Virus record (IMG/VR): IMGVR_UViG_3300016725_000002
Coordinates: 1-64,000 of that record
Strand: one strand, 5' to 3'
Source: a virus
Taxonomy: Duplodnaviria; Caudoviricetes
DNA length: 64,000 nucleotides
Part shown: piece after piece, positions 7,976 to 64,000 of the stretch
Position numbering within the stretch: position 1 is the first letter of the stretch
Layout: every line of letters starts with the position of its first letter
Program-made: the position numbers and the translations under genes
The notes under the pieces: model-generated
The model's database searches: none
Seen by the model: only the letters and a program-made list of their open reading frames with translations
What the model was told of the DNA's origin: nothing

Positions 7976-8091
7976 GATGCTAACCTCGTTGAAGTTAAAT
8001 ATTGCGATAGATTAAAACTATCGTGAAACGGTTGTTGCCGTTTTTGTATATACTTAAACTGTATAAAAATGTAAAAAAGTGTTCATATTTT

Positions 8092-10002: not shown

Positions 10003-10016
10003 GGTTTGGCTCCTTC

Positions 10017-37404: not shown

Positions 37405-37604
37405 TTCTTTTTATCTAAATATTCCTGATATTCTTGTTTAAATGTAGATAATAAACATCGCCTCGCTATTTCTGCATGAGTTATATTTTTATCAGATTGC
37501 TCACTTTCATCAAGTGCTTTACGTCTTAAAAATGTAATAAAGGTTTTCGGTAGTTTTAAATTATATGTAGCTGTATCTTGTAAGTAACTATCATATTTAC
37601 CCAT
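37401..37604 (-). CDS. ribbon-helix-helix-like DNA-binding protein
   Basis: TYNLKLP....FLRRKA...ITHAEIARRCL strand-helix-helix pattern; GAGGAG RBS. Confidence 0.6.
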   Translation of the reverse strand: MGKYDSYLQDTATYNLKLPKTFITFLRRKALDESEQSDKNITHAEIARRCLLSTFKQEYQEYLDKKK

Positions 37605-37615
37605 GTTTCTTCTCC

Positions 37616-41767: not shown

Positions 41768-42595
41768 TTAAACCTCATAGTAATAACAATTATTACATAT
41801 ATCAGAAATAGTAAATAGTTCTCTTTTGTATAATGAAATTAGATTAGGTCGTGTAATTGGTACTGACTCTGTATTTACAATGTTAGCACTACATTTAAGA
41901 ATAAGTTTTCTATCAATATCTAATGCAGCAGCCTCATGAGTTGTATTACAACGTAATTGAGCATCCTTAGCTACAGAAGAATCTTGTTTAAAATGTAAAG
42001 CTTTAAATGCTTCAACTGCATCCAATCCCTCAATATTATTATCAAGAGTATAGAAAGTTTGAAGATCATCAAAGTATTGTTCTACTGAATCATTATCTGA
42101 TTTAGGATTAAATATTTTAAAATATGTATTGCTCTCTTTTAATTGTAAATATAATGCTCTATTATTTAGCAAAGCTTTAGTTGTTTTATTAGTCATTACA
42201 ACTATATTTAGATGATTACTATTTTCTTTTGATAATAAAGGCATATCATAAAATTTATTAAGTGTAGTTGATACATCTGAAATCAAGTGTTCATTATATT
42301 TCTTATCAACTAAAAATTCAATTCCATATTTCTTTCGCACTAAACCATTAGAAATAATTTGAATACTTTGTGTATTACGGTAAGAATTAATTAAATTACA
42401 ACATTCAACTAAATTGGTTGCTAACCCAGGTTCACCACCAATTAAGATGATATTTAATTTTGTAAATATAAATGAATCTAAAATATACTTAATATAATCT
42501 AAATCAATTTCATACTCAATATTTTGTGAATTTCTATAGTAACAATAATAGCAAGATTGATTACATTTATGTGAAAGTATTAATTCGAGATGCAT
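41768..42595 (-). CDS. radical SAM protein (GGEPGL subfamily)
   Basis: CNQSCYYC; C-terminal CNNCYY. Confidence 0.9.
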   Translation of the reverse strand: MHLELILSHKCNQSCYYCYYRNSQNIEYEIDLDYIKYILDSFIFTKLNIILIGGEPGLATNLVECCNLINSYRNTQSIQIISNGLVRKKYGIEFLVDKKYNEHLISDVSTTLNKFYDMPLLSKENSNHLNIVVMTNKTTKALLNNRALYLQLKESNTYFKIFNPKSDNDSVEQYFDDLQTFYTLDNNIEGLDAVEAFKALHFKQDSSVAKDAQLRCNTTHEAAALDIDRKLILKCSANIVNTESVPITRPNLISLYKRELFTISDICNNCYYYEV

Positions 42596-44268
42596 ATATC
42601 TCTCACTATCTTATTTTCTTGGATATGCTTTTCATATATCTTTTTATATCTTTTCCACACTTCTTCTTTTGTTTTAAACATATCATACAAGGCGTAAACA
42701 ACTTGATAATGATAATCTACGTTATGGACTTTATCAATTACATTTGCAAAATCAGCCATATCTCTACACTTCTTTTCTAAGACTGCTCCAAAAGAATTTA
42801 ATCTATTATCTTCTGAGTAAAATATTTTATTTTTGATTTGCATAGTTTTAATTTCATGTTCATGTGGATGTGATGCAAGTGGAGCGTTAGGATATAAATG
42901 TAATGCATTAATAATAATACTATTTATTACTCCATCACCTAAATTAGAACAATAATCATAAACATATTGCGATTCATTTTCTATAGCGTAAGGCATACTG
43001 ATAATAAAATTAGTATTTATAAATATATCATTCTTATGTAATAAATTTAACTTATCTGGTAGGGTATCAATATTAATCTTCTTATTGATAACTCGTAAAA
43101 CTTCTTTATTAATACTTTCTACACCTAAATTAGCAATAACTATATTACATTCTCTCATACCTTGTGCAATGTCTGCATCTACATCGCGTACACGAACACC
43201 TGCATATGAATATAACTTAATATTATGCTGTTGGATATAATTACAATACATATCAAATAGATATTTGCTAGTAATAGCACAATCTGTAAAACATACAGCA
43301 TTATATCCATTATCAGTGAATGACTTTAATCCATCCAAGGCTTTAGTTATTTTCGTTTTATCTGGTTTAGAATTTTTAGAAGTAAAATCACAAAATGCAC
43401 ATTTCTCTCTACATTCTCTACTTAATTCTAATGAATATATGAAACATTTAATAAACTTATCATTAAATTTAGGTGAAGCATCTTCAGGTATACCGGAGTT
43501 AGTAAATAAATCATTAACATAGTTGTAATGACTAGGCTGTTCAATTTTTTCATCAAACATGTATGTTTCTGAATTTGGAGTATACACCCAATGATTAATA
43601 TATTGAGATTGACCATTGAACTTGAAATTTTCTAAATTCATTCCCCTAACAATAGGCCAACGTGAACTAATATCATGATAAGCAGATGTATATTGTCCTG
43701 AATTTCCACCAATATAAATATCTGTAGTGATAGTTGAAATATAATCTAAAAGCAAATAGTTATAATAAGTACAATGTTCCATAACTTGTGGACGTTGCAT
43801 TAAACTAAAAAATACAATATCATTCTTGTTTACTTCTTCTTTAATCTTCTGTTTTGCTAATGTCATTAATTCATCAAGGTTTTCTTGACTAGTGGCTGAC
43901 ATATTTTTATTATAATTGATTAGGTATGAATCTAAATCAATAATTTTCATATCATAATCTTTCTTAAAATAATTGTAAATTACAAATGGGCCATAGGATA
44001 CATATGAATTAACATGATACGGATTAAATTCATGACAAGATATTTCAAAAGCTTGTTGAGCATTTTCTATATCGTTGGTATAACCATCAAAAATAATATC
44101 CTTAAAAATATGAGATTGCATATTAGTATATTTAATATCTAAAGGTTTTTCAGTATTAATACATGTAAAATTAACCTTATGATATGGTATGTACCATTTA
44201 TCAAATCTGCCAGTTAAACGCTTATGAAAGGTATTAATTAATCCATTGATAACTACGATTCTTTTCAT
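42580..44268 (-). CDS. cobalamin-binding-type radical SAM protein
   Basis: IIDLD...FFS...IYIGG, SRECREKCAFC, GVES....L..INK, NFIISMP. Confidence 0.85.
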   Translation of the reverse strand: MKRIVVINGLINTFHKRLTGRFDKWYIPYHKVNFTCINTEKPLDIKYTNMQSHIFKDIIFDGYTNDIENAQQAFEISCHEFNPYHVNSYVSYGPFVIYNYFKKDYDMKIIDLDSYLINYNKNMSATSQENLDELMTLAKQKIKEEVNKNDIVFFSLMQRPQVMEHCTYYNYLLLDYISTITTDIYIGGNSGQYTSAYHDISSRWPIVRGMNLENFKFNGQSQYINHWVYTPNSETYMFDEKIEQPSHYNYVNDLFTNSGIPEDASPKFNDKFIKCFIYSLELSRECREKCAFCDFTSKNSKPDKTKITKALDGLKSFTDNGYNAVCFTDCAITSKYLFDMYCNYIQQHNIKLYSYAGVRVRDVDADIAQGMRECNIVIANLGVESINKEVLRVINKKINIDTLPDKLNLLHKNDIFINTNFIISMPYAIENESQYVYDYCSNLGDGVINSIIINALHLYPNAPLASHPHEHEIKTMQIKNKIFYSEDNRLNSFGAVLEKKCRDMADFANVIDKVHNVDYHYQVVYALYDMFKTKEEVWKRYKKIYEKHIQENKIVRDICISN

Positions 44269-44277
44269 AATTCTCCT

Positions 44278-45975
44278 TTAAAGTTGATTAAAGTTCATAT
44301 CAGGATATGATGAACGTAATTTTTCCATTATCAATTTAATATTTCCATTGTAGTATTTATGTAAAACATATATCAAATTATACTGAATAAAAAATGTAGG
44401 GCGTAATACATTATATAAATATGAAACATTGTCAGAAGAACTAAATGAATCTTCACATACTAAATTCATTGTTTCATCAAAAGTTTTGCCTGGAATTTTA
44501 AATATATAAGTATTAGGAATAGACATAATTTTATGTTTTTTCTTTACATTATAGGATAGTTCAGAAGGATATAATACATATGGGTAATAATAAATAATAT
44601 TAAATATATCTCTTCCGCCACTATCTTTAATGAACTGCCTCATATATTTAAGTTCATCTTTTTCAAAGTTAGGAATACCTAAAATAATGTTGATTATATT
44701 AAAGATACCTTTACTTGAAAGATAAGCTAAATGCTCTGCTGCTTTTTCAAGTGTAAAACCTTTACCAATATATTCAAGTCGTTCATTTGAAGTAGCTGTT
44801 TCCACACCAATACTAGCAAGTATACAACCTGCTTCTGAAATCATATCTGTAACATGAGTTGAAATATTACGAAGGTTCAAGCCACATAACCATTTTAAAT
44901 CTAAATTATTCTTTACAATATAGTTGCATAAATATTCTAAATATTGCAAGTTGCTATTAATACTTGGATCTAAGCATAACATAAAATTATAACCTGCATC
45001 ATAATATTGTTGAATCTGTTGACAACTCAAATCAAAATCTCGCTTATCTGTAATCAAACCGTTCTTACAAGTATTTAATAATTTCATATGAGAAGAATTT
45101 AAACAAAAAATACATTTATTAGAACAGTACATTGAAGTTACATATTCAAAACTTTTACAAGTCTTTTGTTCAAACTCAGGTGTACAATCAAGTGTAACAT
45201 CACATTTATTTAGTATGTCTTTAAATGTATAAGAGTCTTGCTGGTTAATTAAATTTTGAGAATATTTCAATGGTGAAAATATATTGTTTTCTGGTAAGTC
45301 AATCACTTCAGAAGTATCATTTAAATCAAGATAATCTAAGTTTCTACCTAAAACTAATGAAGTATTATTTATTGCATGTGGTTTATCTACTTTGCATGCC
45401 AATCCATGACCACCAATAAGAAACCTATCATGTTTAATGCTATTAGCAAGTTGAAAAGCATGGGAGGTTATTCTATAACCAATTAATTCCATTTTTAAAT
45501 CTGAAATCTTATTAGTTGAGAAAAATATGTAATTATATTGTTTATCCATGTAAGGTTTAAATAAAGAATCAATATATGCATATACTTTCTCATAATCTAA
45601 CACATCAAGGACATTAGCGTAATATTCATTCAATAGTTTTTCATCAATATCTAATACTTCATACTGAATATTGTTTAGTATACAATAGTTAATTAAATAT
45701 GTTTTCTTTAATGAATTATAATTAAACTTTGCACTATGTCTAACTTGAATATCATTTATTTCTTTATCAATATCCGTTGTATCATTGACATAAGGATAAA
45801 CCATTGTATCTAAATCTTTTACGAATAAACGTGACTTTTTATAATGTAATGTAGGATTACGCAATAAATCAAAGTTCATGCTAAGATAACTGTGAATATA
45901 ATCATGAAATACATAATCTCTATGACAAAACTTACTAGAAATATAGGTATTAAAAATTAACAAAGCAGTCTTCAT
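44278..45975 (-). CDS. cobalamin-binding-type radical SAM protein
   Basis: FFS...FLIGG, CSNKCIFC, AGC....GVET...L..IGKG, ILGIP. Confidence 0.85.
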   Translation of the reverse strand: MKTALLIFNTYISSKFCHRDYVFHDYIHSYLSMNFDLLRNPTLHYKKSRLFVKDLDTMVYPYVNDTTDIDKEINDIQVRHSAKFNYNSLKKTYLINYCILNNIQYEVLDIDEKLLNEYYANVLDVLDYEKVYAYIDSLFKPYMDKQYNYIFFSTNKISDLKMELIGYRITSHAFQLANSIKHDRFLIGGHGLACKVDKPHAINNTSLVLGRNLDYLDLNDTSEVIDLPENNIFSPLKYSQNLINQQDSYTFKDILNKCDVTLDCTPEFEQKTCKSFEYVTSMYCSNKCIFCLNSSHMKLLNTCKNGLITDKRDFDLSCQQIQQYYDAGYNFMLCLDPSINSNLQYLEYLCNYIVKNNLDLKWLCGLNLRNISTHVTDMISEAGCILASIGVETATSNERLEYIGKGFTLEKAAEHLAYLSSKGIFNIINIILGIPNFEKDELKYMRQFIKDSGGRDIFNIIYYYPYVLYPSELSYNVKKKHKIMSIPNTYIFKIPGKTFDETMNLVCEDSFSSSDNVSYLYNVLRPTFFIQYNLIYVLHKYYNGNIKLIMEKLRSSYPDMNFNQL

Positions 45976-47558
45976 AATTCGCTCCCTGAAAAACCCACTA
46001 GTTCTTTAGTTTTAAGAAACTCCGAATAATATCTCCACACAATTCTTTTTTCAGTATACTTTGCATATAATGCAAAGATATAGTTAATATAACTATCCAA
46101 CTTGTTAAATCTATCAACATATTTTTTGTAAGTTTGCATAGTAATACTCAGTCTATTTAAATTATTATACTGCTTACTTATTTCTTCTAAATATAAATTG
46201 TAATTTTTATGAGATGCAACTTTTATATGAAATTTAGTAGGATCATCATAAAAATGAATTCCTTTATATAAACTAAATATACTATGTTGTACTCCATTTA
46301 TAAGGCCATCTTCATAGGAATCAAGTAGATTAATTAAGTCTTGAACTTCAGTTTTTCTTGCATAAGGCATATTAAATATAAAATTAGTTTGAATAAATAT
46401 ATTATTTTGGTGAAGAGCAGTTAATTTTTCTTCAATCTGAGTTAGAGTTAAATTCTTACGAATATACTTTAAATGTTCATTGTTGCTTGCTTCAATTCCA
46501 ACATTAACTGCTTTTACTCCTAATTCTCGTAAAGCAACAGCTTTATCTTTAGATATATCTTTTAAACATGTTCCACAAAATATGGACATTTTAATATTAT
46601 TCTTCATAATATAATTATATACATTATCAAATGTATATGGATCAAGTAAGTTAGGATCAATTAGTATTACACCATTAAAACCATTCTCATAATAAGATTT
46701 TAAATTATCACATGATTTAGAATAATCTTGTTTTTTAAACTTTTTAACTACACAAGAATTACTACAAAAAGCACATCTACCAGTACATGTAGTATACCCA
46801 GAAATATGGTAGACTAAAGTACGCATTTTAATATCACCAAAAGTTTCTATATATTTATTATCTAATAAATTGGTATAGTTGTCATGAAATTGCAAATATT
46901 CTTCAAAGTTTCCATCATCTAAATTAAGTAGTTTAGATTTTCTAAATTTAGTTAAATTTGAACCTTTAACTAAATTAAAAGATTTAAGTTTAACCATAGG
47001 TAAAGAATTATTTACACCCATATCATTAACACCAGTACCACCAACATATAAATTTTTAGTTTTAGATCGTATTTTATCTAATAATTTTAAATTCCAATAA
47101 CAATTCATTTGTACACAGAAAGAATGCCTAGTATAACTATATAAAACTTCATCCGTTGATTTTATATCATCAAGGGCTAAATTAACTGCTTCCATTTTAT
47201 CATTAAAAGAACCTGTAGTAGTTAAAAATATTTCATCTAAATCAATAAATTTATCAGGCTTGAAATAGCTATTTAATAAATAACTAGTATAATAAAGGAT
47301 ATTACTTGTATAATCCAAATTTGTAATAAATGGAAAATTATCAAAAACTTCTTGAATTTCGTCTTGAGATAAATTTGAATATACATAACAAAATTCCTCA
47401 ATTACTTGTTTGTAATATAAAGTAAAATTAAACTTTTCAACACTTGATTTTTTATCAAATATCCAACCATCATGTGTAAAATAAATTAAAATATCCTTAT
47501 ATTTAGCAGGATATGATATACGAGTTGAATAAGTTAAACCTTGAATAAATATTAACAT
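45972..47558 (-). CDS. cobalamin-binding-type radical SAM protein
   Basis: CTGRCAFC; GVKAVNVGIE..N.EHLKYI shared with 40172..41767. Confidence 0.8.
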   Translation of the reverse strand: MLIFIQGLTYSTRISYPAKYKDILIYFTHDGWIFDKKSSVEKFNFTLYYKQVIEEFCYVYSNLSQDEIQEVFDNFPFITNLDYTSNILYYTSYLLNSYFKPDKFIDLDEIFLTTTGSFNDKMEAVNLALDDIKSTDEVLYSYTRHSFCVQMNCYWNLKLLDKIRSKTKNLYVGGTGVNDMGVNNSLPMVKLKSFNLVKGSNLTKFRKSKLLNLDDGNFEEYLQFHDNYTNLLDNKYIETFGDIKMRTLVYHISGYTTCTGRCAFCSNSCVVKKFKKQDYSKSCDNLKSYYENGFNGVILIDPNLLDPYTFDNVYNYIMKNNIKMSIFCGTCLKDISKDKAVALRELGVKAVNVGIEASNNEHLKYIRKNLTLTQIEEKLTALHQNNIFIQTNFIFNMPYARKTEVQDLINLLDSYEDGLINGVQHSIFSLYKGIHFYDDPTKFHIKVASHKNYNLYLEEISKQYNNLNRLSITMQTYKKYVDRFNKLDSYINYIFALYAKYTEKRIVWRYYSEFLKTKELVGFSGSEL

Positions 47559-48386
47559 TTATTCTTCAACATCATAATAATAACATTTTTCACATAGGGA
47601 ACTAAAATTAAATAACTTTTTATTCAGTAATGCAATTAGATTATCTGAATTAATCTCATAGGATTTACTTAAAATAGGATTACCACCACATTGTAAAATT
47701 GAGTTTGAATCTAAATCCAAGGTTGCACTAGTATGAGATAGACAACAACTTCTTTTATTTTCGATATGTAAATTTGAATCTCTATAGGAAGCTAACTGTT
47801 TTAATTCCCTAATTAAACCATATTTTATATAAAAGGAATATAGAGAATCATAATAAGTATTAAGATCAATAAAATTATTATTCTTTTTATTTAAAATTTT
47901 AAATTCAGAAAATTCTAGTAATTCAGTTGCTAATTCAGTATTATTTAATAATGATTCTGTGGTATGTTTTGTCATTATTACTATATTTTTATTTGTTTTT
48001 GATGAAACAAAAGGCATATCATAAAATTTAATAATTTTATTTTTATAAATTTCAAGTATTAAATGTTCTTCATACCGTATATCTGAAGTAAAATCAAAAT
48101 TCTGCCGAACCAATCCATTTGAAACAATATTTAAATCATTTTTATTTTTCAAGTTTGGTAGAGATAAAAAGTAATCAACTAATTGAGGTAAATTATTACA
48201 TAACCCAGGTTCACCACCACTTAAACACACTGAAATATCTTTAAATATGATAAAAAATTTCATTATATATTTGATATAATCTAAATCTACTTCATAAGAA
48301 TTTTTATTGTGATGATGTAAGTAACAATAATAACAATTTTTATTACAGTTATTAGATAGCATAAATTCTAAGTGAAATTTATGCAT
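47559..48386 (-). CDS. radical SAM protein (GGEPGL subfamily)
   Basis: CNKNCYYC; paralog of 41768..42595. Confidence 0.9.
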   Translation of the reverse strand: MHKFHLEFMLSNNCNKNCYYCYLHHHNKNSYEVDLDYIKYIMKFFIIFKDISVCLSGGEPGLCNNLPQLVDYFLSLPNLKNKNDLNIVSNGLVRQNFDFTSDIRYEEHLILEIYKNKIIKFYDMPFVSSKTNKNIVIMTKHTTESLLNNTELATELLEFSEFKILNKKNNNFIDLNTYYDSLYSFYIKYGLIRELKQLASYRDSNLHIENKRSCCLSHTSATLDLDSNSILQCGGNPILSKSYEINSDNLIALLNKKLFNFSSLCEKCYYYDVEE

Positions 48387-49472
48387 TTATTTTTCTCGTA
48401 CAATGTCCAGTGTAAAACAATGAAAACCTCCACCAAATAAACGTCTATGTCTATGTTGAACAGGAATTGGTTCAAATCCTTCATTACTTAACGTATCACA
48501 AAGTTCAGGGAATAAAGAGTTGCACATAATACGTTTTCCATCAATGCTTAATACATTTATATCAATGAACGGGCCAGCTAAACGTAAATCATCAAAACCA
48601 TATGCAGGAAAATGATTATCATTTGATACAGGAGCATACACTAATTTCCAATCTTTTAAGAAATCAGGAAGAATATCACGAATAAATGTATTTCGTACTA
48701 ATAAAGTACCTTCACATAAAGGAACAATATAACTGTCTAAATGATTATCCGTTATGGAACGTACAATATGAAAATGGTATTCAGGAAATTGACGAATCAA
48801 CCACTCTGCACCTAGTCTATGATTATGTGTACTAACATTAACAATAATATCTTTTCCAAATCTAACTAGCTGTGCAGCATCAATCATCATTTCATGACCT
48901 AAACCAAAATTCAATTCTATTGGATCTAATTTTTGTGTATTTTCAATTGGAAATGTTTCAGCAATACTTTCAGTATCGAATGATGAATCTAACATCATAG
49001 GTTTAGGCATTTCAAACCACTGACAATCACCACGAGAAAAGAAATCATAGAAAACAGGTTTAAGTAAATCATTTTCAAAATATCTATATCTAACTTGTGG
49101 TGCTAATTCAACAATACGATTACCTAGAATAACTACTTGGTCACGAATATTAAGTGCAGGAATCATTGTGCTTTTATAATAAGGTGTTTTATATGGAACA
49201 GGAGCAGATAAAGTTTTAGGACGATGCACTATAATACCAAGTGATTCTAATACATTTTTCATATTTTCAACATCTTCAGTTAATTCTTGTAAATATTGTT
49301 TCTTTACTTGAAATTTATTTTCATTATCTCGTCTACTATATACTTCAGAATAATGTTCAGCATAAAATAATTTAAATGATAGTTCTAAAGCAGGTAATTG
49401 AAAGTTTAATGGTGAACCTAAAACTACTTCTTTTAAAGGCGACCATTCATTGTTAGAATAAACCGTATTCAT
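48387..49472 (-). CDS. amidinotransferase (glycine/inosamine-phosphate amidinotransferase, StrB1-like)
   Basis: NEWSPLKEVVLG, RD, RYFE, DAA, HLDS and GGGFHCFTLD motifs, including the Asp/His/Cys catalytic residues. Confidence 0.9.
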   Translation of the reverse strand: MNTVYSNNEWSPLKEVVLGSPLNFQLPALELSFKLFYAEHYSEVYSRRDNENKFQVKKQYLQELTEDVENMKNVLESLGIIVHRPKTLSAPVPYKTPYYKSTMIPALNIRDQVVILGNRIVELAPQVRYRYFENDLLKPVFYDFFSRGDCQWFEMPKPMMLDSSFDTESIAETFPIENTQKLDPIELNFGLGHEMMIDAAQLVRFGKDIIVNVSTHNHRLGAEWLIRQFPEYHFHIVRSITDNHLDSYIVPLCEGTLLVRNTFIRDILPDFLKDWKLVYAPVSNDNHFPAYGFDDLRLAGPFIDINVLSIDGKRIMCNSLFPELCDTLSNEGFEPIPVQHRHRRLFGGGFHCFTLDIVREK

Positions 49473-50412
49473 TAATCCCTCTCCTTCTCATATCAAACAA
49501 CACACGGCGATAATTCAATTCATTATTAGGGTTCATGTAATGAGAGTTATATAACCAAACAAAGTTTGCTATACAGTTGTTGCAAGTTTCATCATGAAAA
49601 GGATAAATAGGTTCATTATATAATACTTTTTTAAGATTCTCATAGGTTAACTCAACAGAGTTAGTATTCATACTAATGCAACATCTATGAATCTTTCGTA
49701 GAGGTAAATTAATAATAATTTTATTGTAAATATTACAACATGCAAATCTAAAGGTTCGCAGCGTATCAGGTTTATCTGTATATTCAATTATTTCTTTAAC
49801 TCGGTTTTTCATATGATCTTCAATATTTGGTTTGTCACACATAATATCATAAATTTGTTGAAAATCTTCTTTACTCATAAAGTCTAAGCCGGGAACTCTA
49901 GGTTGTAAGAAATGAGGTAAAAATGTTTTATCTAAATTAGCTGAAAGAAAAGAATCAAGATATTTTATATTATGTTTATGAACTACCATTGTATAAAGTA
50001 CATGAATAGATGGGTCAAAAGTATAATCTGGGAAAGTTGTTTCTTCATTTAATTCGGTAACTGTATGATAAAGTATATGATGGATCTTATCCTTATATCT
50101 ATCATGATAATTACGCTGCATAAACAGTCCATTAGTTGTAATTGTATATGTTTCACTTAAATTAGCATTAAATACTTCATCCAAATAATCTTGAGAAAGT
50201 AATCCAATCTCTCCACCCTCAAGAGATACTTCAATATTAGCGTTACCTTTAATTTCATTAAACATTTCTACAAATTCACGATAATAACTTAAATCAACGG
50301 TAGTAGGATTAACAATTGAAGGATGGTCACAATACCAACAACGCCATTGACATTTTTGAGTTAAAGATATCCATACCCATCTATCAAAATCAACATAATC
50401 TCGCTTTTTCAT
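49453..50412 (-). CDS. radical SAM protein (GGEIGL subfamily)
   Basis: CQWRCWYC; IHRCC...LTYENL...CNNC. Confidence 0.9.
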   Translation of the reverse strand: MKKRDYVDFDRWVWISLTQKCQWRCWYCDHPSIVNPTTVDLSYYREFVEMFNEIKGNANIEVSLEGGEIGLLSQDYLDEVFNANLSETYTITTNGLFMQRNYHDRYKDKIHHILYHTVTELNEETTFPDYTFDPSIHVLYTMVVHKHNIKYLDSFLSANLDKTFLPHFLQPRVPGLDFMSKEDFQQIYDIMCDKPNIEDHMKNRVKEIIEYTDKPDTLRTFRFACCNIYNKIIINLPLRKIHRCCISMNTNSVELTYENLKKVLYNEPIYPFHDETCNNCIANFVWLYNSHYMNPNNELNYRRVLFDMRRRGINEYGLF

Positions 50413-50421
50413 ATTGCTCCT

Positions 50422-51381
50422 TTATAATACCTTTCTACTCAATAGAAAGTCTTCTTCTGGTGGAAAACAGAAAGGAAGTTTACATATTTGATTTTTAAAA
50501 TCATAATATGGATTAGTTAATACATTGCCTAATGGTTTTTGATTGTAAAAATCTTCATCGTAACGACAACAAGGATAAATATTAAAGTTATCTAATACTG
50601 AAATATATTTATTTCCTGCTTCACAAATTAACATCTTATATCGTGTATAGTCATTAATATTAGAATCATTAAATTGCAAATCATATTTATCATGTATTTC
50701 ACTTGTTCCATTATTAAATGTATACTTAAATAACAAATCTTTTCCACTTATTTTTCTAGCTTTGTTAAATAACTCAGACATGTACCATGAGTATTCGGTT
50801 TCACCGGGTAAAATGCTATATATTGTTCTAGGTAATATTCTAAACTCAGGTATATTAACTGAATTGAAATATTCAAAGGCTTTAAATGATAATTCATCAT
50901 CTTCGCCAGTAAACATACATTTAACTTCTACAGTAGCACCAGCATTTAAGAGTATCGTAATCTTTTGGTCTAATTGTTTGATATTAGTAATATGTGGATG
51001 AAAACTAGTTAATACACGCAATTTGCTATTACAACTAGCTATTAACTCTTGAAGATAAGATATATCTCGATATAAATTAGTATAGAGTTTAACATTGTAT
51101 TTATAATTATTTATTGCATGTAAAAAATGAGGATGAGTTAATGGTTCACCACCATAAATAGCTATCCAAGATTTATCCGTTGAGATATTATTGAAATAAG
51201 TTGTTGCAACTGTTAACTGATCTTTAGTTGAAAATTCATTTGTATTCTTACAACTATAAATACAATATCTACAGTTAAATGTACAATTTTTAGTTATTCC
51301 CCAACCAATATATCGGTCACAGGGTTCAATCATATAGTTATCTTGGTATTCAATTCTACTTATATCTCGCAATCTTTTCAT
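50422..51381 (-). CDS. radical SAM protein with twitch-like domain
   Basis: CTFNCRYC, GGEPLTHP, SFHP; CEAG...IYPCC...LGNV...C....C. Confidence 0.9.
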   Translation of the reverse strand: MKRLRDISRIEYQDNYMIEPCDRYIGWGITKNCTFNCRYCIYSCKNTNEFSTKDQLTVATTYFNNISTDKSWIAIYGGEPLTHPHFLHAINNYKYNVKLYTNLYRDISYLQELIASCNSKLRVLTSFHPHITNIKQLDQKITILLNAGATVEVKCMFTGEDDELSFKAFEYFNSVNIPEFRILPRTIYSILPGETEYSWYMSELFNKARKISGKDLLFKYTFNNGTSEIHDKYDLQFNDSNINDYTRYKMLICEAGNKYISVLDNFNIYPCCRYDEDFYNQKPLGNVLTNPYYDFKNQICKLPFCFPPEEDFLLSRKVL

Positions 51382-52250
51382 AAAGTTTTTGCGTTCCTTA
51401 TTTTAGTATTTAAAATATTAGTTAAGTTCTTTTCAGCACACCATGCAAAACAGGATTTACAGTATTCATTGTCACCAAACATATTAGAATGGGGTGTTAA
51501 TATTTTAATTAAATTATCTTCAGTTAAATCAATTGAATTATTTGATCTGCCAGAACATTGAGCTATTTTATTTTCAGGTAACACAATACTAACTGTTTGA
51601 TTTAAGGTGGCGCATGCTTTTCTACTCATATCTAAAGATGGTATAGCTGCTATTTTTCGTTCTATATCTTCAATACATGCAGCAGTAATATTCTGGTATT
51701 GTTTAGCACATTCTAACAAATAAGTATAACAAGTTTTAAGCTGCATTTCTGTTATGTCTAAAGATAATGGAAAGTCAAATCCTAAATAATCAATAGGCAT
51801 ATGTTTATTTTTCTGTAGAAATTCTTCAATATAGTATGCGCAATTAAACACCTTTCCATAACTTACATTAGCAACACATTCATTTACTCCATCATGCATA
51901 TGACAGAAGATGTGACTACTTTCATATCGTTTATGATAATTACGTTTTAGATATTCACCATTTGTTGAAATTATAGGTTTGATATTCCAGTTACTCAAAT
52001 AATAAAAAACCATATGAAGAAGTCTTTCGTCTAATAAACCAATCTCTCCACCAACCAAACATACAGAGCATTTTTCAATTAGTTGAACAGTATTACAAAT
52101 ATACGGCAAATGCTGATGGAGTTGTTGTTCTGTAACATGGTTATATGAAGGGAATGTTCCGAATGTACAATGAGTACATTTCCAATTACATTGCGTTGTT
52201 AACACTAATTCAATCTGCTGGTCAATGTTTGTGTATATCACCAAAACCAC
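51378..52250 (-). CDS. radical SAM protein (GGEIGL subfamily)
   Basis: CNWKCTHC, ISTNGE. Confidence 0.9.
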   Translation of the reverse strand: MVLVIYTNIDQQIELVLTTQCNWKCTHCTFGTFPSYNHVTEQQLHQHLPYICNTVQLIEKCSVCLVGGEIGLLDERLLHMVFYYLSNWNIKPIISTNGEYLKRNYHKRYESSHIFCHMHDGVNECVANVSYGKVFNCAYYIEEFLQKNKHMPIDYLGFDFPLSLDITEMQLKTCYTYLLECAKQYQNITAACIEDIERKIAAIPSLDMSRKACATLNQTVSIVLPENKIAQCSGRSNNSIDLTEDNLIKILTPHSNMFGDNEYCKSCFAWCAEKNLTNILNTKIRNAKTL

Positions 52251-53089
52251 CCATAGTCCCTGTTTATGAAACTTTTGTTTAGGCGTGCATTGACAACTTT
52301 GTCTGTTTTGTGTGCGTCCATATCATAATAATAACAAGCATCGCACATCTTATTATATTTAAATAATGTTCCTCTTAATAAGCTACGCAGGTTTTCTGCG
52401 GTAACGGCATAACTCTCTGATTCTTTAAAAAAGGAACATTGATTAATTTGTTTATTATACAGTGTAATAGATGGCATATGTGAATATGTTGAACATAATA
52501 TTCTATTGGTATCACATGCATGTTGTAATACAGATACTGCATATTTATCTTGTCTATCAGAATAAAATTTAATATATTTATTTAACTCTTTAACTTGAAC
52601 AGTATAATTTAGTAACATCTTATACACAGTATTTTGTGGTAGATACTTCATTAATTCAGGGGAAAGACTATTTAACACATTATCAGTCAATACTAAAATA
52701 TTAGCACATTTTTCTGTTACAAAAGGAAGTTGTGTATTATACTGAATAGCACCATCTACTATATCTTGAATAAGATGTTCACAATATAGTCTAAATTTAA
52801 CACAAGATACTAAATCATAATAGTGATCTCTAAATAAACCATTAGACATAACTTGAAAATAATTCACATATTTATTATCTATTACTTTACGCAATAATTG
52901 GGGCATATTTGAAATTAAACCTGTTTCTCCACCAGAAATTTCAAGATATAGCGGAACAGCTAAAGAGTTAAGTATATATTCAACATAATCAACATCTATT
53001 TCAATTAAATCTGTACTATTTTTTATAAAGTCACAGTAATAACAATTGCTGTTACACTTATTATGGGTTATTAAGCTTAGGAAAAACAT
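52238..53089 (-). CDS. radical SAM protein
   Basis: CNSNCYYC, GGETGL, SNGLFR, EHLI, TAENL...CDACYY. Confidence 0.9.
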   Translation of the reverse strand: MFFLSLITHNKCNSNCYYCDFIKNSTDLIEIDVDYVEYILNSLAVPLYLEISGGETGLISNMPQLLRKVIDNKYVNYFQVMSNGLFRDHYYDLVSCVKFRLYCEHLIQDIVDGAIQYNTQLPFVTEKCANILVLTDNVLNSLSPELMKYLPQNTVYKMLLNYTVQVKELNKYIKFYSDRQDKYAVSVLQHACDTNRILCSTYSHMPSITLYNKQINQCSFFKESESYAVTAENLRSLLRGTLFKYNKMCDACYYYDMDAHKTDKVVNARLNKSFINRDYGWFW

Positions 53090-54048
53090 AAGGAATGTTG
53101 GATAAACTTTATTGTATTTTCATCTAATTCATTATAATTCGGCAAGTATAAAATATCAGGAGTATATTTTGCATGATATACTATACAACTTTTAAAGAAA
53201 AAGTCTCCTTCAAAATCAAAAGAGGTAATAGTTTTATAATTATCATCGGAGGTTAAGTCTACTTTTCGCTTAACAAATTTGTTAAATTTAGCAATAGTAG
53301 CAGAAGCATTACATGCAATACATAATCTACTTGGTGAGGTTTGATCTTCCGCATGAATAACATTAAAAGGTAAGGATTCATATACACGTTGACGTTCTGC
53401 AATAATAGATGAATAATCATAAGTAATAAGTCGTTCTAACGCTAGTGTATTCATTTGTAAATTTAAACCTAACGCAAATGATTTATTACCTCTATGGAAA
53501 TTACCTTGAAACTGACATTCCATGAATCTTTCTAATAATGCAGGGTTGTTTATTATGCCACAACCACCTTCACCTAAATCAATAGTTTTCTTTTCAGAAA
53601 AACTTAAACATGAAATATCACCAATACCAAATGTATTAAAATCAGGCATAGTTGAACCAAGTGAATTACATGAATCTTCAATTAATACAATATTTCGCGC
53701 ATCACATAGTTCTCGGATTCGTAATATATCTCTATCAAGAATACCTAAATGGTAAACATAAATGATAGCACTAACTGCATAATTATCTACTAATTCTTTC
53801 ACACTGTCATAAGACATACATAAAGTATTAGGATTCACATCGGCAACCGCAATATTCAGTTTCATAAACCTAGCTACATTAAACCAAGCATGATAGCCAT
53901 AATTCGGGCCAATAACTAAACTACCTAATGGGGCATCACAACTATATAATGCACACATTAATGCAGATGTACCACTATTAGTAAAGACAACCGGAGATGT
54001 TGTCTTTGTTGCAGTATTGATTATAGATGCAGCTTGTTGTTCTAGCAC
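53077..54048 (-). CDS. DegT/DnrJ/EryC1/StrS family PLP aminotransferase
   Basis: NSGTSAL, IEDSC.SLG, SFSEKK...GEGG with the PLP lysine; TTG start with AGGAGG. Confidence 0.85.
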   Translation of the reverse strand: MLEQQAASIINTATKTTSPVVFTNSGTSALMCALYSCDAPLGSLVIGPNYGYHAWFNVARFMKLNIAVADVNPNTLCMSYDSVKELVDNYAVSAIIYVYHLGILDRDILRIRELCDARNIVLIEDSCNSLGSTMPDFNTFGIGDISCLSFSEKKTIDLGEGGCGIINNPALLERFMECQFQGNFHRGNKSFALGLNLQMNTLALERLITYDYSSIIAERQRVYESLPFNVIHAEDQTSPSRLCIACNASATIAKFNKFVKRKVDLTSDDNYKTITSFDFEGDFFFKSCIVYHAKYTPDILYLPNYNELDENTIKFIQHSLCFS

Positions 54049-54923
54049 AATAACCTCCTAAGTTGTTGTTTAACTAACAGTAACTTTGTAATCTCATGTT
54101 TATCAAAGCTAAAACAATTTCTTACACATTTTGAACAATTATTATTTACTGTATCGTATACTGAAAAATTAGTCAAAAGTTTTACCAAGTTCTCTTTCGT
54201 TAAGGGTAAAGTAATATGTCTATTTTTAACACTACAGAGGCATAAACAATTATGAGTAAAATCAACTGTTATAATACGTCCACTTTTAGCACAACCCTCT
54301 TGGTACTTTAATAATTCTTGATATGGTAGAATATTATTTGGGCAGTTATCATATAGTGTAGGGTGTTGTTGTTTAATATACTGTCTACTAGCAATAATAG
54401 TGTTATACTTTTCTTCCGTTAACTCTTCATCTAAAGGTAGTTCAAAGTCTAAGTATTTTAGTTGATATTGTTGTGTAATTGTATCTATTGCTTCTGTAGA
54501 ATAATGTGTAATTACTGCACCTGGTATTACATCAACGGTTGATTGAGTTGTTGAGTCGATATTTAAATCTGGTGTAATATGATAATGAACCTGTCCAATA
54601 TACGAAGAGAATTTAGTATGATAATTATGTTTAATGAACTCTCCATTAGTTGATATAGTAATATTCTGCTGATTTAAAGTAGTGAAGAATTGATTAAGCT
54701 TATCATATGATAACAAACCTATTTCTCCACCTTGAGCCAACATATGAATACGAAAATGTTGAGAGATAGTATTTATAAGATTGGATACCATTTTAATATT
54801 CTGTATAGTTAACTCATTAAATTCAATCTCGTCATTTAGTCGATAACGAGAAGCATAATTACAATAGCTACAATCCCAATTACATCTATCTATTAGTTGA
54901 AACTCCATATATAGATCAGTCAT
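54042..54923 (-). CDS. radical SAM protein (GGEIGL subfamily), first gene of the operon
   Basis: CNWDCSYC, ISTNGE, LTKENL...CSKC; GGGAG RBS. Confidence 0.9.
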   Translation of the reverse strand: MTDLYMEFQLIDRCNWDCSYCNYASRYRLNDEIEFNELTIQNIKMVSNLINTISQHFRIHMLAQGGEIGLLSYDKLNQFFTTLNQQNITISTNGEFIKHNYHTKFSSYIGQVHYHITPDLNIDSTTQSTVDVIPGAVITHYSTEAIDTITQQYQLKYLDFELPLDEELTEEKYNTIIASRQYIKQQHPTLYDNCPNNILPYQELLKYQEGCAKSGRIITVDFTHNCLCLCSVKNRHITLPLTKENLVKLLTNFSVYDTVNNNCSKCVRNCFSFDKHEITKLLLVKQQLRRLLC

Positions 54924-54955
54924 ATTTCTCCCTGTAAACCAGTTTGTTGGTTTAG

Positions 54956-54970
54956 TATAAACTGTTTATA
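54956..54970 (-). promoter_or_regulatory. CAGTTTA promoter motif within the palindrome TATAAAC-T-GTTTATA upstream of the radical SAM operon
   Basis: Perfect 7-1-7 inverted repeat between a terminator and the first operon gene. Confidence 0.5.
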
Positions 54971-54980
54971 GCATAAATGC

Positions 54981-55015
54981 AAAAAAAAACCCTACAGTCG
55001 TTAAACTGTAGGGTT
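54981..55015 (-). terminator. Rho-independent terminator
   Basis: AACCCTACAGT/ACTGTAGGGTT stem followed by a T9 run on the minus strand. Confidence 0.85.
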
Positions 55016-55107
55016 AAGTTGAAGGGGAGTTTCCTCCCCTTCTATATCCCACGTTGAAGGAGCCAAACAACGTGGGGAAATTGTTTATATCGTTCAAATA
55101 TAAACTG
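54981..55107 (-). ncRNA. putative trans-acting sRNA (stacked hairpins, anti-SD loop)
   Basis: CAGTTTA motif at 55101-55107; 9-bp stem with loop UUUGGCUCCUU; 9-bp stem with GAAA tetraloop; terminator. Confidence 0.55.
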
Positions 55108-55122
55108 TATTATCGCATTGGT

Positions 55123-55488
55123 TTATGACTCACTTTTTACAAAACTTGGTACAGTCGGCCAAGGTGTATTTGAACCACCTCCATCCCAAGGAGAACCAGA
55201 TATATTAGGTAGTTGGCGTAATTGTTCTATATATTTAAGTAACTCTATATACTGGTCATCTGTTATTGTAGTAGAAACATTAATTAACTTCTGCTGTTCA
55301 TGGCGTTGTGTCATCCAAATAACTTTATCCAACTCAGTATCGCGTAAATTACGCAGTTGTTGAAGTAAATCTAGTGTATTTAATATAGGTTCGACATATT
55401 CTACACTATAATATTCATCTACTGTGCATTCAGATGCATCTTTTACAGCTCTACACCCTCTATTATCAAGTCGGACTGCATAACTCAT
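55123..55488 (-). CDS. tail fibre assembly chaperone
   Basis: LR..RD..L......RH..Q......TTITD.QY.EL..Y...LR..P...WPT.P; similar to the C-terminus of 26370..26951. Confidence 0.8.
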   Translation of the reverse strand: MSYAVRLDNRGCRAVKDASECTVDEYYSVEYVEPILNTLDLLQQLRNLRDTELDKVIWMTQRHEQQKLINVSTTITDDQYIELLKYIEQLRQLPNISGSPWDGGGSNTPWPTVPSFVKSES

Positions 55489-56300: not shown

Positions 56301-58046
56301 TTACCCCTTTAATTCCTTTATTAATCGTTGAAGCTCATGTGATTGAGTTAATAATTCAGAAACAGCTTTACTAGCATGGCCCATAGAAGTTGAAGTTTCC
56401 TCAGATATATTTGCTACTTGTTCAATTGCATGACTAATCTCTTCACTTGCAGCAGATTGTTCTTCACTTGCAGTTGCAATAGATTGAATCTGTGTATTAA
56501 CGTCATGCGTATATTGAAGTATGCTAGTTAATGCTTTACCAGATTCATTAGAGTAATTAGCTGTTTTATCAATTGCAGATGCAATTTCATCTACATTAAC
56601 TATATTTTTACGGGTGCTCTGTTGAATTGCATTAATTGAAGAGTTAACTTCTTTAGTAGCTGTCATAGTCTTTTCAGCTAGTTTACGAACTTCATCTGCA
56701 ACCACTGCGAAACCACGGCCAGCATCTCCAGCACGCGCAGCTTCAATAGCAGCATTAAGAGCAAGCAAGTTTGTTTGGTCAGCAATATCTGAAATGACAT
56801 CTATAATTTGGTTAATTTCATCAGCTTGTTTACCTAATATATCCATATCTTGTTTAATAACACTAGATTGTTGTTTAATATTATCAATAGCAGAAACAGT
56901 AGTATTAACTACAACATTTCCTTGTTCAGCTAAATCCTTAGTTTGTGTTGAAGCGGTTGCCGCCTGTTGCGCATTACGAGCAACTTCTAGCACGGTAGCA
57001 TTCATTTCTTCCATTGCAGTAGCAGTTTCACGAACACGGCTAGATTGTTCTTCTGCACCACGACTAGATTGTTCAATCTGAGCTGATAAAGATTCAGAAG
57101 CAACATTTAATACAGAAACAATAGATTCAAGACGATTAGCTGCTTCTATCATGCCTTCACTTTTTGCTAATTCAGCATGTTTAGTTGCTTCTTCAGCAAG
57201 TTGTGTAGCTTTCTTAGCAGATGAAGCTTCAGCTTTAGCTTGGTTGCTTTTATCTTCAGCTTCTCGTATTTTCTCTTTTAAATTAGATACCATTTTAATT
57301 AACACACTATAAACACCACCCGCAGTATCAACAGATTTAAAAGTTAAATCAAGATTACCATCTGCAATTTCAGTAGCAATATAATACAAATAATTAGGAT
57401 CTTCACCTAATTGACGTTTAACACTTCTAATAATAAAGAAAGATATAATAGCAGCAACAATCATACTACACGTCAACAGCACAATTACAAATGTCTTACC
57501 CTTTATAGCAGCTTGTTCTGCTAAATTAGAAGAAATAATACTTCCAGTATCATTAATAGTAATTAACTTTGCTAACGTATTAGATGCTTCATTATATATC
57601 TTTAATGAATTAACAGTTACCTGTGGATGAGCTTCATCTACTTTGTTAGCAACAAGCAATTCTTCCACTTTTGTTTGGGCAGTTACGTAATCTGTCCAAA
57701 CTTGTAGGAAATGATTAAAGGCTTCCTTCTCTTCCGGTTCAGAGATTAAACCTTTGTATTTGTCAATTGCTGCATTTATATCCTTAGTATTTTGTTGTAT
57801 CAATGAAGTATAATATTGCTTCTCTTGTTCACCATTAACTACCATTCTAGCTAATTCATAACGGCGATAACTATTAATGCGTGTATTTATTTCTCCAATA
57901 ATTTTGATTGAAGGAAGCCAGTTCTTTATTATTTCTTGAGTATTCTGGTTAATTGAGTTCATTTCTATTAATGATAATGCTCCTGTTATTACTGCAAATG
58001 AGGACAGAATAACAGAAAGTAATATTAATTTTATGGACAGTTTCAT
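56301..58046 (-). CDS. mcp: methyl-accepting chemotaxis protein (4HB sensor, 2 TM, MCP signal domain)
   Basis: [40 protein letters not shown]; NWLPSI 4HB motif; [15 protein letters not shown]...[20 protein letters not shown] typical of Desulfovibrio MCPs. Confidence 0.95.
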
Positions 58047-60942: not shown

Positions 60943-60966
60943 AAGCTTCTCCTTAATAAAAGTAAA

Positions 60967-61066
60967 TGGGTTAGGGTAGATAGTTAGGGCTATCTACCCA
61001 AAGGGAGCTACCCTCTGTCCCCAAATTTGGTTAAACTGTAATGCTGAAGGATGCGCCTGTTTTTGT
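60967..61066 (-). repeat. copy 1 of a ~100-bp direct repeat: orphan sheath 3' end (TKTGASFSITV*) + 58-nt structured element
   Basis: Aligns with 62804..62903; identical core TTGGGGACAGAGGGTAGCTCCCTTTGGG...CCCTAACCCA. Confidence 0.9.
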
Positions 61067-62770
61067 TTAAACTACACATTGTTTTATTACCTCACAATTA
61101 TTTATTTCTTTAATTAGCTTCTTTTCAACTTTAGCAGTAATATGCTTCGGTTTACCTACAGAAGCATTATAATTTTGAGTTACTTTTTCTAAGTTATATC
61201 TGCAATTATTCCAAGTAATACTATCTTTATGATTAACAACATGTCTATCTTTCATTGTCATATTTAAGATATATCTATGAAATCGAATTGCATCTTTATT
61301 GGAAATAACGTAGTTTCCGTCACGCAATTGCCATTTAAATGCAAAGGCTTGTTTTAAATCCTTATAATCAAATATAAAGAATCCTTTAGTGCAATACATT
61401 TTCACTACTTTGTTACCTCTAAATGAGATAACATCATAGGATTGCTTTTTGCTATATTTCATATTTTGTATGGCATCAATTAACGATTCTGATAACTTCC
61501 AAGAATCTTTATGTTTTATAAACTCTTGTTTAGTAATTTTATACTTTTTACACACTTCTTTCATATTATTTAATGGATAAAATAATGGAAATTTATCCAT
61601 TATTGCGGTTACGGCTTTATTATATAAATAAGCTGATTTAACTCTAAGTAATGGATCATCTCTTCCAGAGCAAATCTTAATATACTTCAAATTAGACCAT
61701 TTAACATTAAATCCACAAGTAATATATTGTTTAGTACCACGTTTATTGCTTATAAATAACCCATAAATTCCTAACTTTGTTTCCTGTAAGAAGAAACAGT
61801 TTGCTGAAATATCAGCGTAGCTAGTAATTTTGATGGGTTTACACTTTAGTTGTTTTGCATAATATTCTACATCTAACTTTTCATTAATATCATCTCCATA
61901 TTTATCAATAAGGTAGTTTTTAATACATATTGCGGCCATTAAAGTTTTTGGACGTAATTCAATTAGCTGCCCATTAGAAGTTTGAAATCTTAATCTGTAT
62001 CCTCTGGTTTTACCAATACTAAGATCAGTAATGCCAGCAATACCTGTGTTAGATCGTGATTTAATATTCTTTGAATTGTGACTTATAGTTACACTTCGTA
62101 AATTATTACGAGTATTATCTAGTTTATTTTGATTACGGTGGTCAACAACATAACCTGATTTTACAGGTAAAACTAACTGATGAAGGAACCCAAGTTTTGG
62201 GTTATATGCATATCCTCTAGTAGCTAAACTCCAACGATACCCTTTTACAATATTTAAATCCTCAATAGAAACATAAGTGCATCCAACTTGCTCGCTTTGG
62301 CGGTTAAGAAGCTGCACTTTAACTTTATCTCCTAATATTTTTAGCCTACTAGGCTTCAATTTATTTGGAGTACAGTCATCCAAATCTAAGGAATCTAAGT
62401 TAGATAAAAATTTAGGTTGTTTTATATGGTGTGGTTTGAAATTTTGAGGATTAACACCAATAGGTAGCAACATTAAATTTTTACGTCTAAAATCAAGTTT
62501 ATTATTATTACGAAATGCTACATAATATCCATTAACATATTTTACAAGTGTTTGTTGTAATAATGTTCTATCTGTATATTTATTAGAGTTAGATATAAAT
62601 ACCCTTAAATCTGTTTTATTTAATCTCCAACGATATTTCTTTATTTTATCATAATCTTGTTTATCAAGTAATATCTCATTAAATTTATTGTTATATTTAT
62701 CTACTATATGTAAATGTACACCCATTCCATCTATGTGATATGGGTTTGGCTGAAAGCAATGTGTTTTCAT
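61067..62770 (-). mobile_element. free-standing HNH homing endonuclease gene with three HNH-type modules
   Basis: VAFRNNNKLDFRRKNL (degenerate), VVDHRNQNKLDNTRNNLR, VVNHKDSITWNNCRYNL; SNTGIAG and AYLYNKA are AP2-like. Confidence 0.85.
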
Positions 62771-62803
62771 GTTACTTCCAATTAGAGTTGGAGTTTTTGG
62801 TTT

Positions 62804-62903
62804 TGGGTTAGGGAAAGCATCTCTAACTACTTTCCCAAAGGGAGCTACCCTCTGTCCCCAAGTTTTATTAAACAGTAATACTGAATGAGGATCCGGTTTT
62901 TGT
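62804..62903 (-). repeat. copy 2 of the direct repeat: functional sheath 3' end (TKTGSSFSITV*) + 58-nt structured element
   Basis: See copy 1. Confidence 0.9.
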
Positions 62904-64000
62904 TATCACGATTTTGCCAAAAATATATTCCACGGACTTTGTAGGCTGTATAAATACCCAAACATTCATAATATAGTTATCAATGTCTTCAGCAGAGTTG
63001 TTGGTATCATCACACACAATCTTGTATGTGTAAACACCACGGCGACTCTGAATATTCTTCATATAACTATCAAGACCAACTGTAACCAAGTCACGGGTTA
63101 TCTGGTCATTAAGTTCAAATAAGAAATCATCCAAAAATTCTTTAATTGCAGGTTCAATAACTATTAATAGCATACGAACATTCACTCTATCAAGAGCGGT
63201 TGCCTTACGATATAATGTCTTATTACCCCAAATTCTTATGCCCTTGGTAAGACTGAAAGAGATAGGGTTAATTGAGTTATTATATAATTCATCCTCTTCA
63301 CCTTCTTCCCAAACTTTGGAAAGACCAAGGACGTTTAATACACCGCGGGTGTTACCAGCAACAGGATACCAAGCTTCCTGATATTCTGCGGTATGGCTCA
63401 TATTTGCAGCCACATGACCCACAGGGGCAACATAGATCTCACGATTATTGAATTTATCATAAATTTTAAGGTGAGGAGAATACATTGCTGCATAGCTTGT
63501 ATTCGCCATTAACACCTCATTTCTATAATCAATTACGTCCTGCATAGCATTGCTTGAAAGTTCATCAGAAAGACGTGAAGAGAGCAGCCCAATACTGAAC
63601 TGACGAGATTCACACAAACTGATAATAGCCTGCTGGTATGCAGCAACAGTATAACCACCATCTATAATGACGTTACAAGTATAACGGCGCACGTTAGCTA
63701 GTTTCTGAATAGCTAAAATCATTGCACCTGTAGTAACAGCAGAGCCATTGCTACCATTAGCTAACTTCAAAAGAGTAGTTTGATTAGCTGGATAAATATT
63801 CTCATTAACATTTGTATTATTGATTACTCCAATGTAATTACTACGTTTAACTACATCGTCACAATAGATGCTAACTTGTGAATCGTCAACTGCATCCTGA
63901 TGACGTGACATTAACCAATTTTCAACATTATCAAATGTTCCATCTTCAAGCTTTTTAAATACAGAAACTTTAAAGCTATTAGCAACACCTAAAGTACGAG
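62868..64000 (-). CDS. tail sheath protein (T4 gp18-like), 5' part outside the window
   Basis: WYPVAGNTRG, LY...INPI....G..IWGNKT......LDRVNVR.L...IE, FLFELND..TR, CD.TN....ID, IQPTKS.EYI; the frame stays open upstream of 63911 to the edge. Confidence 0.95.
   Translation of the reverse strand, partial: RTLGVANSFKVSVFKKLEDGTFDNVENWLMSRHQDAVDDSQVSIYCDDVVKRSNYIGVINNTNVNENIYPANQTTLLKLANGSNGSAVTTGAMILAIQKLANVRRYTCNVIIDGGYTVAAYQQAIISLCESRQFSIGLLSSRLSDELSSNAMQDVIDYRNEVLMANTSYAAMYSPHLKIYDKFNNREIYVAPVGHVAANMSHTAEYQEAWYPVAGNTRGVLNVLGLSKVWEEGEEDELYNNSINPISFSLTKGIRIWGNKTLYRKATALDRVNVRMLLIVIEPAIKEFLDDFLFELNDQITRDLVTVGLDSYMKNIQSRRGVYTYKIVCDDTNNSAEDIDNYIMNVWVFIQPTKSVEYIFGKIVITKTGSSFSITV

Follow-up and report, generated by a model that had tools for sequence, protein, structure and literature searches.

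A candidate structured minus-strand RNA with an anti-Shine-Dalgarno-like loop downstream of the tail-fibre genes of an uncultured phage

The window, the whole 64,000-bp stretch of DNA analyzed here, makes up the first 64 kb of a virus record of 161,660 bp, which has a G+C content of 30% and an estimated completeness (CheckV-type) of 59%. It contains phage genes for tail sheath, tail tube, baseplate and fibre, nearly all of its genes are on the minus strand, and a scan for tRNA and tmRNA genes found none. A metagenomic contig of 233,379 bp (ENA ERZ27250305, contig k141_22416) is 100% identical to the window across the 12.6 kb compared and ends within a cluster of radical-SAM genes; the phage is therefore probably an uncultured jumbo myovirus with a real genome larger than 233 kb, of which the 161-kb record is probably a fragment. 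Known phages are distant relatives (protein identity ≤36%), and GenBank phages searched at the nucleotide level with 2.3 kb of DNA surrounding the locus described below give zero matches.

A full-length methyl-accepting chemotaxis protein gene (56301-58046, minus strand; 4HB_MCP and MCPsignal domains, E = 2e-46) lies inside the tail-fibre module, and its closest atlas clusters are bacterial (Thermodesulfobacteriota, Pseudomonadota). A 567-aa ORF (61067-62770, minus strand) that carries an HNH endonuclease domain is located between a sheath gene and the genes for the tube. That sheath gene (62868-63911, minus strand) is matched by sheath profiles in their C-terminal part only, and the gap following the HNH ORF (60943-61066) is G+C-rich and structured, carries a CAGTTTA site and has no Rfam match. 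The region 60943-63911 on the minus strand may be a homing-endonuclease or intron-like insertion.

The locus of interest is a 199-nt gap between the tail-fibre module and a long operon of radical-SAM genes. A preliminary description of this DNA had read a CAGTTTA motif, two hairpins and a terminator in 55107-54981 on the minus strand, all of which are present there. The features of the gap and its flanks are as follows.

55123-55488, minus strand: tail-fibre assembly chaperone gene (Pfam Phage_tail_APC, phrog_188/8716)
55101-55116, minus strand: P1, conserved promoter-like block GCGATAATACAGTTTA, with CAGTTTA at 55107-55101; begins 6 nt past the chaperone stop codon
54981-55094, minus strand: predicted sRNA body of about 100-115 nt, from the fold and covariance model R1
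55048-55076, minus strand: hairpin 1, a 9-bp stem (arms 55076-55068 and 55056-55048) with the 11-nt loop UUUGGCUCCUU at 55067-55057
55068-55056, minus strand: the 13-mer formed by the loop and its closing pair, part of hairpin 1
55021-55042, minus strand: hairpin 2, GC-rich, GAAGGGGAG-GAAA-CUCCCCUUC
54981-55015, minus strand: intrinsic terminator (stem-loop 55015-54988), with a 12-bp stem, a UAAC loop and 9 U
54924-54980, minus strand: P2, a second CAGTTTA promoter-like site (CAGTTTA at 54964-54958), with the 5' UTR and Shine-Dalgarno sequence (SD) of the next gene
54042-54923: first gene of the long radical-SAM operon, the downstream flank of the gap

The 5' end of the RNA would lie a few nucleotides past P1 and its 3' end within the U-tract of the terminator. 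A 151-nt stretch has a predicted folding energy of -62.5 kcal/mol, far below that of shuffled sequences (z = -9.1), and in a second test the three-hairpin fold is again more stable than shuffles (z = -7.6). The loop of hairpin 1 is predicted to be single-stranded and would take 0.2 kcal/mol to open. A search with covariance model R1 finds the unit as a single copy in the 161-kb record. No Rfam family matches it at its gathering threshold, the best score being ≤25.7 bits against thresholds of 39-93 bits; the sub-threshold matches include ncr1575, RAGATH-23, the SR6 antitoxin and NsiR1. An Rfam search of the whole window likewise yields zero matches at gathering score, and nothing close at the permissive thresholds that were also tried.

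Relatives of the unit were reached through the flanking proteins. Scans of IMG/VR with these proteins and three DNA patterns yield no relative, and scans of metagenome and genome contigs with loop-free patterns return only unrelated chance matches (four loci). The comparison includes five DNA variants with four distinct sequences from three phage lineages: the window, L003 (JGI 3300045340), L008 (JGI 3300045375), L009 (ENA ERZ22666167) and L075 (ENA ERZ22679812). A sixth source, P0001 (ENA ERZ22666135), is a gene call that reads through the gap: the gene caller lengthened the first radical-SAM gene by 58 codons across the whole non-coding unit. This extension is an annotation artefact, and through it the RNA sequence is partly readable from a protein record. 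The first residues of P0001, MKTNFPTLFGSFNVGYK, are those obtained by translating hairpin 1 of L009 and L075, and for hairpin 1 the read-through gives the same peptide, NFPTLFGSFNVGY.

The three-hairpin fold is common to all variants. In a model-guided alignment 99.1% of the pair cells are standard, and five pairs show compensatory double changes (two in hairpin 1, three in the terminator), relative to 0-1 in slid-partner controls; these counts rest on three lineages with four distinct sequences, and the statistics are correspondingly thin. The three terminator pairs are altered on both sides in L009 and L075, and the terminator U-tract ranges from 6 to 9 U across the variants. The stem of hairpin 2 is kept despite indels and its pairs never vary, while its loop is not conserved; in relatives it has a 10-bp stem and a UGU loop. 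The 11-nt loop of hairpin 1, by comparison, is identical in the five DNA variants and in the P0001 protein read-through. Two pairs of hairpin 1 have become U·G and G·U in L003 and L008, changes that would be mismatches if read on the plus strand, and covariance model R1 scores four variants at 97-116 bits in the minus-strand sense versus 20-31 bits on the opposite strand. Both observations argue that the functional molecule is the minus-strand RNA. From P1 through hairpin 1, 69 of 74 positions (93%) are identical between the window and L009/L075, compared with about 70-73% in the flanking DNA, and only one base of the P1 block varies across the five variants.

A small protein-coding gene would keep its reading frame among relatives, and no conserved frame crosses the unit in the variants compared. 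Two candidate frames were considered and rejected: one, a TTG ORF running across the hairpins on the minus strand, is frame-shifted by a 1-nt indel in L003 and L008 and has stop codons in the window, and the other, a plus-strand 18-codon GTG ORF behind an RBS-like reverse complement, differs in both frame and peptide in L003. Taken together, covariation, extreme conservation, a promoter-like motif and a terminator bear out the structured minus-strand element that had been proposed, and a structured non-coding RNA unit with an exposed anti-SD-like loop, predicted to be discrete, is well supported by these comparative data.

The genes downstream of the unit differ between lineages. The 17.3-kb radical-SAM block (37605-54923) is present in the window, in L003, in L069 and in the P0001 contig, and is missing from L008 (520-730), L009 (1087-1290) and L075 (1-200), where a 67-aa gene (37401-37604 in the window) directly follows the RNA unit and P2. 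The unit is thus kept with or without the 17-kb cluster and is independent of it. The cluster itself reads as a cassette-like insertion or deletion placed exactly between the promoter-like site and the first gene of an older operon.

The CAGTTTA motif recurs throughout the record in a strongly strand-biased manner, with 29 copies on the minus strand and 2 on the plus strand. Thirteen of the 29 fall in non-coding DNA, which makes up 5% of the total and would be expected to hold 1.4 (~9-fold enrichment), and most of these lie 15-85 nt ahead of an SD and ATG. CAGTTTA(W) is a candidate consensus for phage-specific promoters. Some of the conserved copies are intragenic, such as that at 13479, which is also found in L004 and L076. 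Another conserved copy, at 8055 and shared with L004, precedes with a 75-nt leader the gene at 7568-7975 (minus strand), which is G+C-rich within this 30% G+C genome and codes for a lysine/alanine/proline-repeat protein (KKPAAAKKPAA...) resembling histone H1 or AlgP. The motif may serve the phage as its own promoter or regulatory element, probably a late one, and P1 is a candidate promoter by motif analogy only. P2 is conserved in relatives, where it stands ahead of a different gene, the 67-aa gene. A further CAGTTTA copy inside the terminator hairpin was considered as a functional site and rejected; it is lost in L009 and L075 and is therefore probably incidental. Since no terminator separates the chaperone stop codon (55123) from the RNA unit, the unit is also the 3' UTR of the fibre operon.

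The preliminary description had proposed that the exposed loop is antisense to the RBS of a gene in the lysis region, 45 kb away. The genes and the site concerned are the following.

9712-10002, minus strand: ORF for a 96-aa hydrophilic protein with no Pfam match and a weak PHROG match, directly upstream of the candidate i-spanin
10004-10016, minus strand: proposed target GAAGGAGCCAAAC, which covers the SD and spacer ahead of ORF 9712-10002 and ends 1 nt before the ATG
9286-9711: candidate i-spanin (weak phrog_739 match and N-terminal membrane segment)
9039-9320: candidate o-spanin (weak phrog_456 match and lipobox LFGC)

The stop codon of ORF 9712-10002 abuts the i-spanin start codon (TAAATG). 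No holin or endolysin is recognized near the ORF, and no membrane segment or toxin-like feature is found in its 96-aa product.

The complementarity is as described. The 13-mer of loop plus closing pair, GTTTGGCTCCTTC, is found at one site per strand in the 161,660-bp record, 10004 (plus) and 55056 (minus), and is an exact complement to 10004-10016. This site also ranks first when the loop is scanned against the genome for duplexes (-22.9 kcal/mol), followed by the o-spanin RBS (-18.9) and an RBS at 5982 (-18.7). When accessibility is taken into account across all start regions, ORF 9712-10002 is again first (-18.1 kcal/mol), its start region being predicted to open at a cost of 1.2 kcal/mol, and a radical-SAM gene at 73369-74472 is next (-16.0). 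The RBS of the latter, a radical-SAM/SPASM gene outside the window, is AAAGGAGCCAAUAUG (74473-74490) and pairs over 10 bp with the loop proper. The top-ranked targets of the loop are all start regions. That the loop is just the complement of the phage's consensus start region was considered and rejected, as GGAG usually continues with AA or GA, and 3 times with CC. By chance, 2.15% of all 13-mers in this genome have a distant same-strand reverse complement, as do 7 of the 280 that contain CTCCTT (2.5%). Allowing for neighbouring windows and shorter matches (p about 0.02-0.05), the 13-nt match is nominally unusual and not overwhelming.

Comparison of the target region in relatives reveals that the pairing is not kept. 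Four variants were available, with identities to the window of 98.9% (L005), 97.9% (L077), about 87% (L076) and about 77-83% (L004), and the spacers fall into three alleles.

Window and L005: target spacer GAAGGAGCCAAACC, duplex with the loop -22.9 kcal/mol
L076 and L077: target spacer GAAGGAGC-AAACC, duplex with the loop -15.8 kcal/mol
L004: target spacer AAAGGAGTGGGC, duplex with the loop -11.5 kcal/mol

L077 has a 1-nt deletion in the spacer despite its 97.9% identity to the window. In the two other lineages (B and C) the RNA and target variants are linked by sample and by similar divergence from the window, not by a shared contig, which is the main caveat of this comparison: L076 comes from the same sample as the RNA variant L008, and L004 from the same sample as L075, with the same two-sample occurrence. 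The loop is invariant while the spacer differs in both of these lineages, and thus there is no co-variation. Co-conservation of loop and target had been named beforehand among the comparisons that could count against the lysis proposal, and as far as these linkages allow, the proposal does not survive it: one loop faces three spacer alleles with no compensating change. The duplex with the o-spanin RBS falls from -18.9 to -6.5 kcal/mol in L004, and the start region of ORF 9712-10002 is among the least conserved of 11 compared. No target of the loop was found to be conserved across the three lineages, and a scan of JGI metagenomes with the protein encoded upstream of the target found nothing. 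The RBS in the lysis region is thus weakly supported as a specific target.

These observations bear on several readings of the locus. The original proposal of a dedicated trans-antisense RNA that would repress ORF 9712-10002 together with the spanins coupled to it in translation, and would thereby time lysis or act like a type I antitoxin, draws on the exact loop-RBS complement that ranks first genome-wide, on the predicted accessibility of the target start region (1.2 kcal/mol), on the o-spanin RBS as second-best raw duplex (-18.9 kcal/mol) and on the TAAATG junction with the i-spanin gene. It is now quite improbable. A dedicated repressor is at odds with the pairing energies of one loop with three target alleles (-22.9, -15.8 and -11.5 kcal/mol), including the deletion in L077, with the weak o-spanin duplex of L004 and with a target start region that is poorly conserved, and the lysis timer is not supported, since relatives do not keep the pairing. 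Type I toxin-antitoxin systems pair a small hydrophobic, membrane-active toxin peptide with an overlapping or adjacent antitoxin gene, whereas here the product is hydrophilic, without membrane segment or toxin features, no holin or endolysin is identified nearby and the RNA is encoded 45 kb from its target; the antitoxin-like version fails. A cis-acting leader for the downstream operon, working by put-type processive antitermination or as an attenuator that controls terminator read-through, is very unlikely. In HK022 put RNA, two stem-loops in the nascent transcript make the polymerase read through downstream terminators, and the order found here of promoter-like site, two conserved hairpins, terminator and genes, always upstream of an operon start, is similar. 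The resemblance is in layout only: the conserved P2 immediately after the terminator would make read-through needless, no alternative antiterminator pairing to a terminator arm can be seen, L009 and L075 have a different terminator sequence with an unchanged hairpin 1, and the downstream genes vary between lineages.

A reading that has to be taken more seriously, although it too is unlikely, is that the tail-fibre operon ends in this unit as its 3' UTR and terminator stack, with hairpins that stabilize the 3' end or bind a protein of phage or host through the loop, no pairing in trans and a 13-nt match due to chance. Upstream transcripts must cross the unit to reach the terminator at 55015-54988, a 13-mer match of this kind is expected by chance at about 2.5% per 13-nt window, and the proposed target lacks co-conservation. 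An invariant loop on a covarying stem is moreover typical of protein-recognized hairpins such as the MS2 operator and lambda boxB, and in this respect hairpin 1 fits a protein-binding hairpin equally well. However, a 3'-end stabilizer would not need the P1 block and a 24-nt single-stranded leader, which are conserved like the hairpins (93%), and the motif class of P1 otherwise stands ahead of gene starts.

The reading that we prefer, with a probability of about 0.5, is that of a late-expressed phage sRNA whose invariant, anti-SD-like loop serves as a seed for SD regions in mRNAs of the phage and/or the host, with a strain-specific 13-bp pairing to ORF 9712-10002. On this reading, a conserved structured RNA of about 100-115 nt would be produced from the minus strand between the chaperone gene and the next operon, probably from its own phage promoter-like site of the CAGTTTA class, P1, and would end at a strong intrinsic terminator also used by the upstream tail-fibre transcript, a layout that would correspond to a 'type I' 3'-UTR-embedded sRNA. 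The loop of hairpin 1, with GCUCCUU plus UUUG, would most likely pair with the SD and spacer of selected mRNAs of phage and/or host and block 30S binding. Its best phage partners in the sequenced strain are predicted to be the RBS of ORF 9712-10002 (13 bp) and that of the radical-SAM gene 73369-74472 (10 bp). As a strain-specific pairing, the former would not be the conserved function and would be at best a recently gained or tunable target. What is observed directly is the fold with its conservation, strand and single copy, the complementarity, and a target that is not co-conserved with the loop; from these we infer P1-driven transcription, the positions of the RNA ends, the mode of pairing and any influence on translation. 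A more speculative and rather improbable extension is that the anti-SD loop acts as a broad translational regulator in this jumbo-phage lineage, in host shut-off or late-gene timing, with RBS spacers drifting in and out of extended pairing and so tuning the lysis module strain by strain.

The preferred sRNA resembles several known systems in part. Of what is generally expected of a trans-acting sRNA, a conserved structure with an accessible, conserved seed is found here, and complementarity of seed and target that is kept or co-varies is not found for ORF 9712-10002; as for its own 5' and 3' ends, the locus offers a promoter-like motif and a terminator. Type I 3'-UTR-embedded sRNAs of enterobacteria (the DapZ and MicL class) have an internal promoter, a terminator shared with the upstream mRNA, an SD-region seed and a long U-tail, and the present unit is similar in its promoter-like site at a gene end, shared terminator, short SD-region seed and long U-tail. 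Unlike the candidate, whose promoter, ends and any chaperone dependence are predictions, members of that class are host-encoded, Hfq-dependent and experimentally mapped. The pyrimidine-rich, anti-SD-like motif in a hairpin loop also recalls sRNAs of the RsaE/RoxS and RNAIII type, which pair with SDs through C/U-rich loops; these occur in Gram-positive hosts, carry UCCC motifs and often have several such loops, and the Rfam search gives no homology to them.

Among phage RNAs, a close parallel is the c4 antisense RNA of phages P1 and P7, a small structured RNA whose loops are complementary to sequences around an RBS and which blocks translation (PMC12197685). Both RNAs are phage-encoded and structured with an exposed loop complementary to an RBS region, a pairing that is predicted in the present case. 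c4 arises by processing of the very operon transcript on which it acts, its role in temperate phages being to control an antirepressor for immunity, whereas the candidate is apparently a separate unit in the structural-gene region, 45 kb from its candidate target and in a different transcription unit; processing from, and action on, its own operon transcript are not seen. It has no sequence or Rfam similarity to c4, and its target pairing is not conserved. RNA-seq has also revealed intergenic sRNA candidates in virulent and jumbo phages, such as misc_4 of phiR1-37, for which trans targets are predicted but no function is proven (PMC12197685). Their discovery came from expression and lacked comparative evidence on structure, while the candidate described here is known from comparative structure alone. 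Phage sRNAs, including loop-to-RBS repressors such as c4, are thus already established (PMC12197685), and the present candidate stands out by its comparative support. The negative result for the lysis region matters in its own right: a perfect 13-nt loop-RBS match would by itself suggest a lysis timer, and the relatives do not back it. Few sRNAs of virulent or jumbo phages have an assigned function, and this candidate is unusually well defined by its promoter-like motif, covarying structure and invariant loop across lineages that are ~70-90% identical. It thus offers a clean subject for testing whether anti-SD seed RNAs of large lytic phages act on the translation of the phages themselves or of their hosts.
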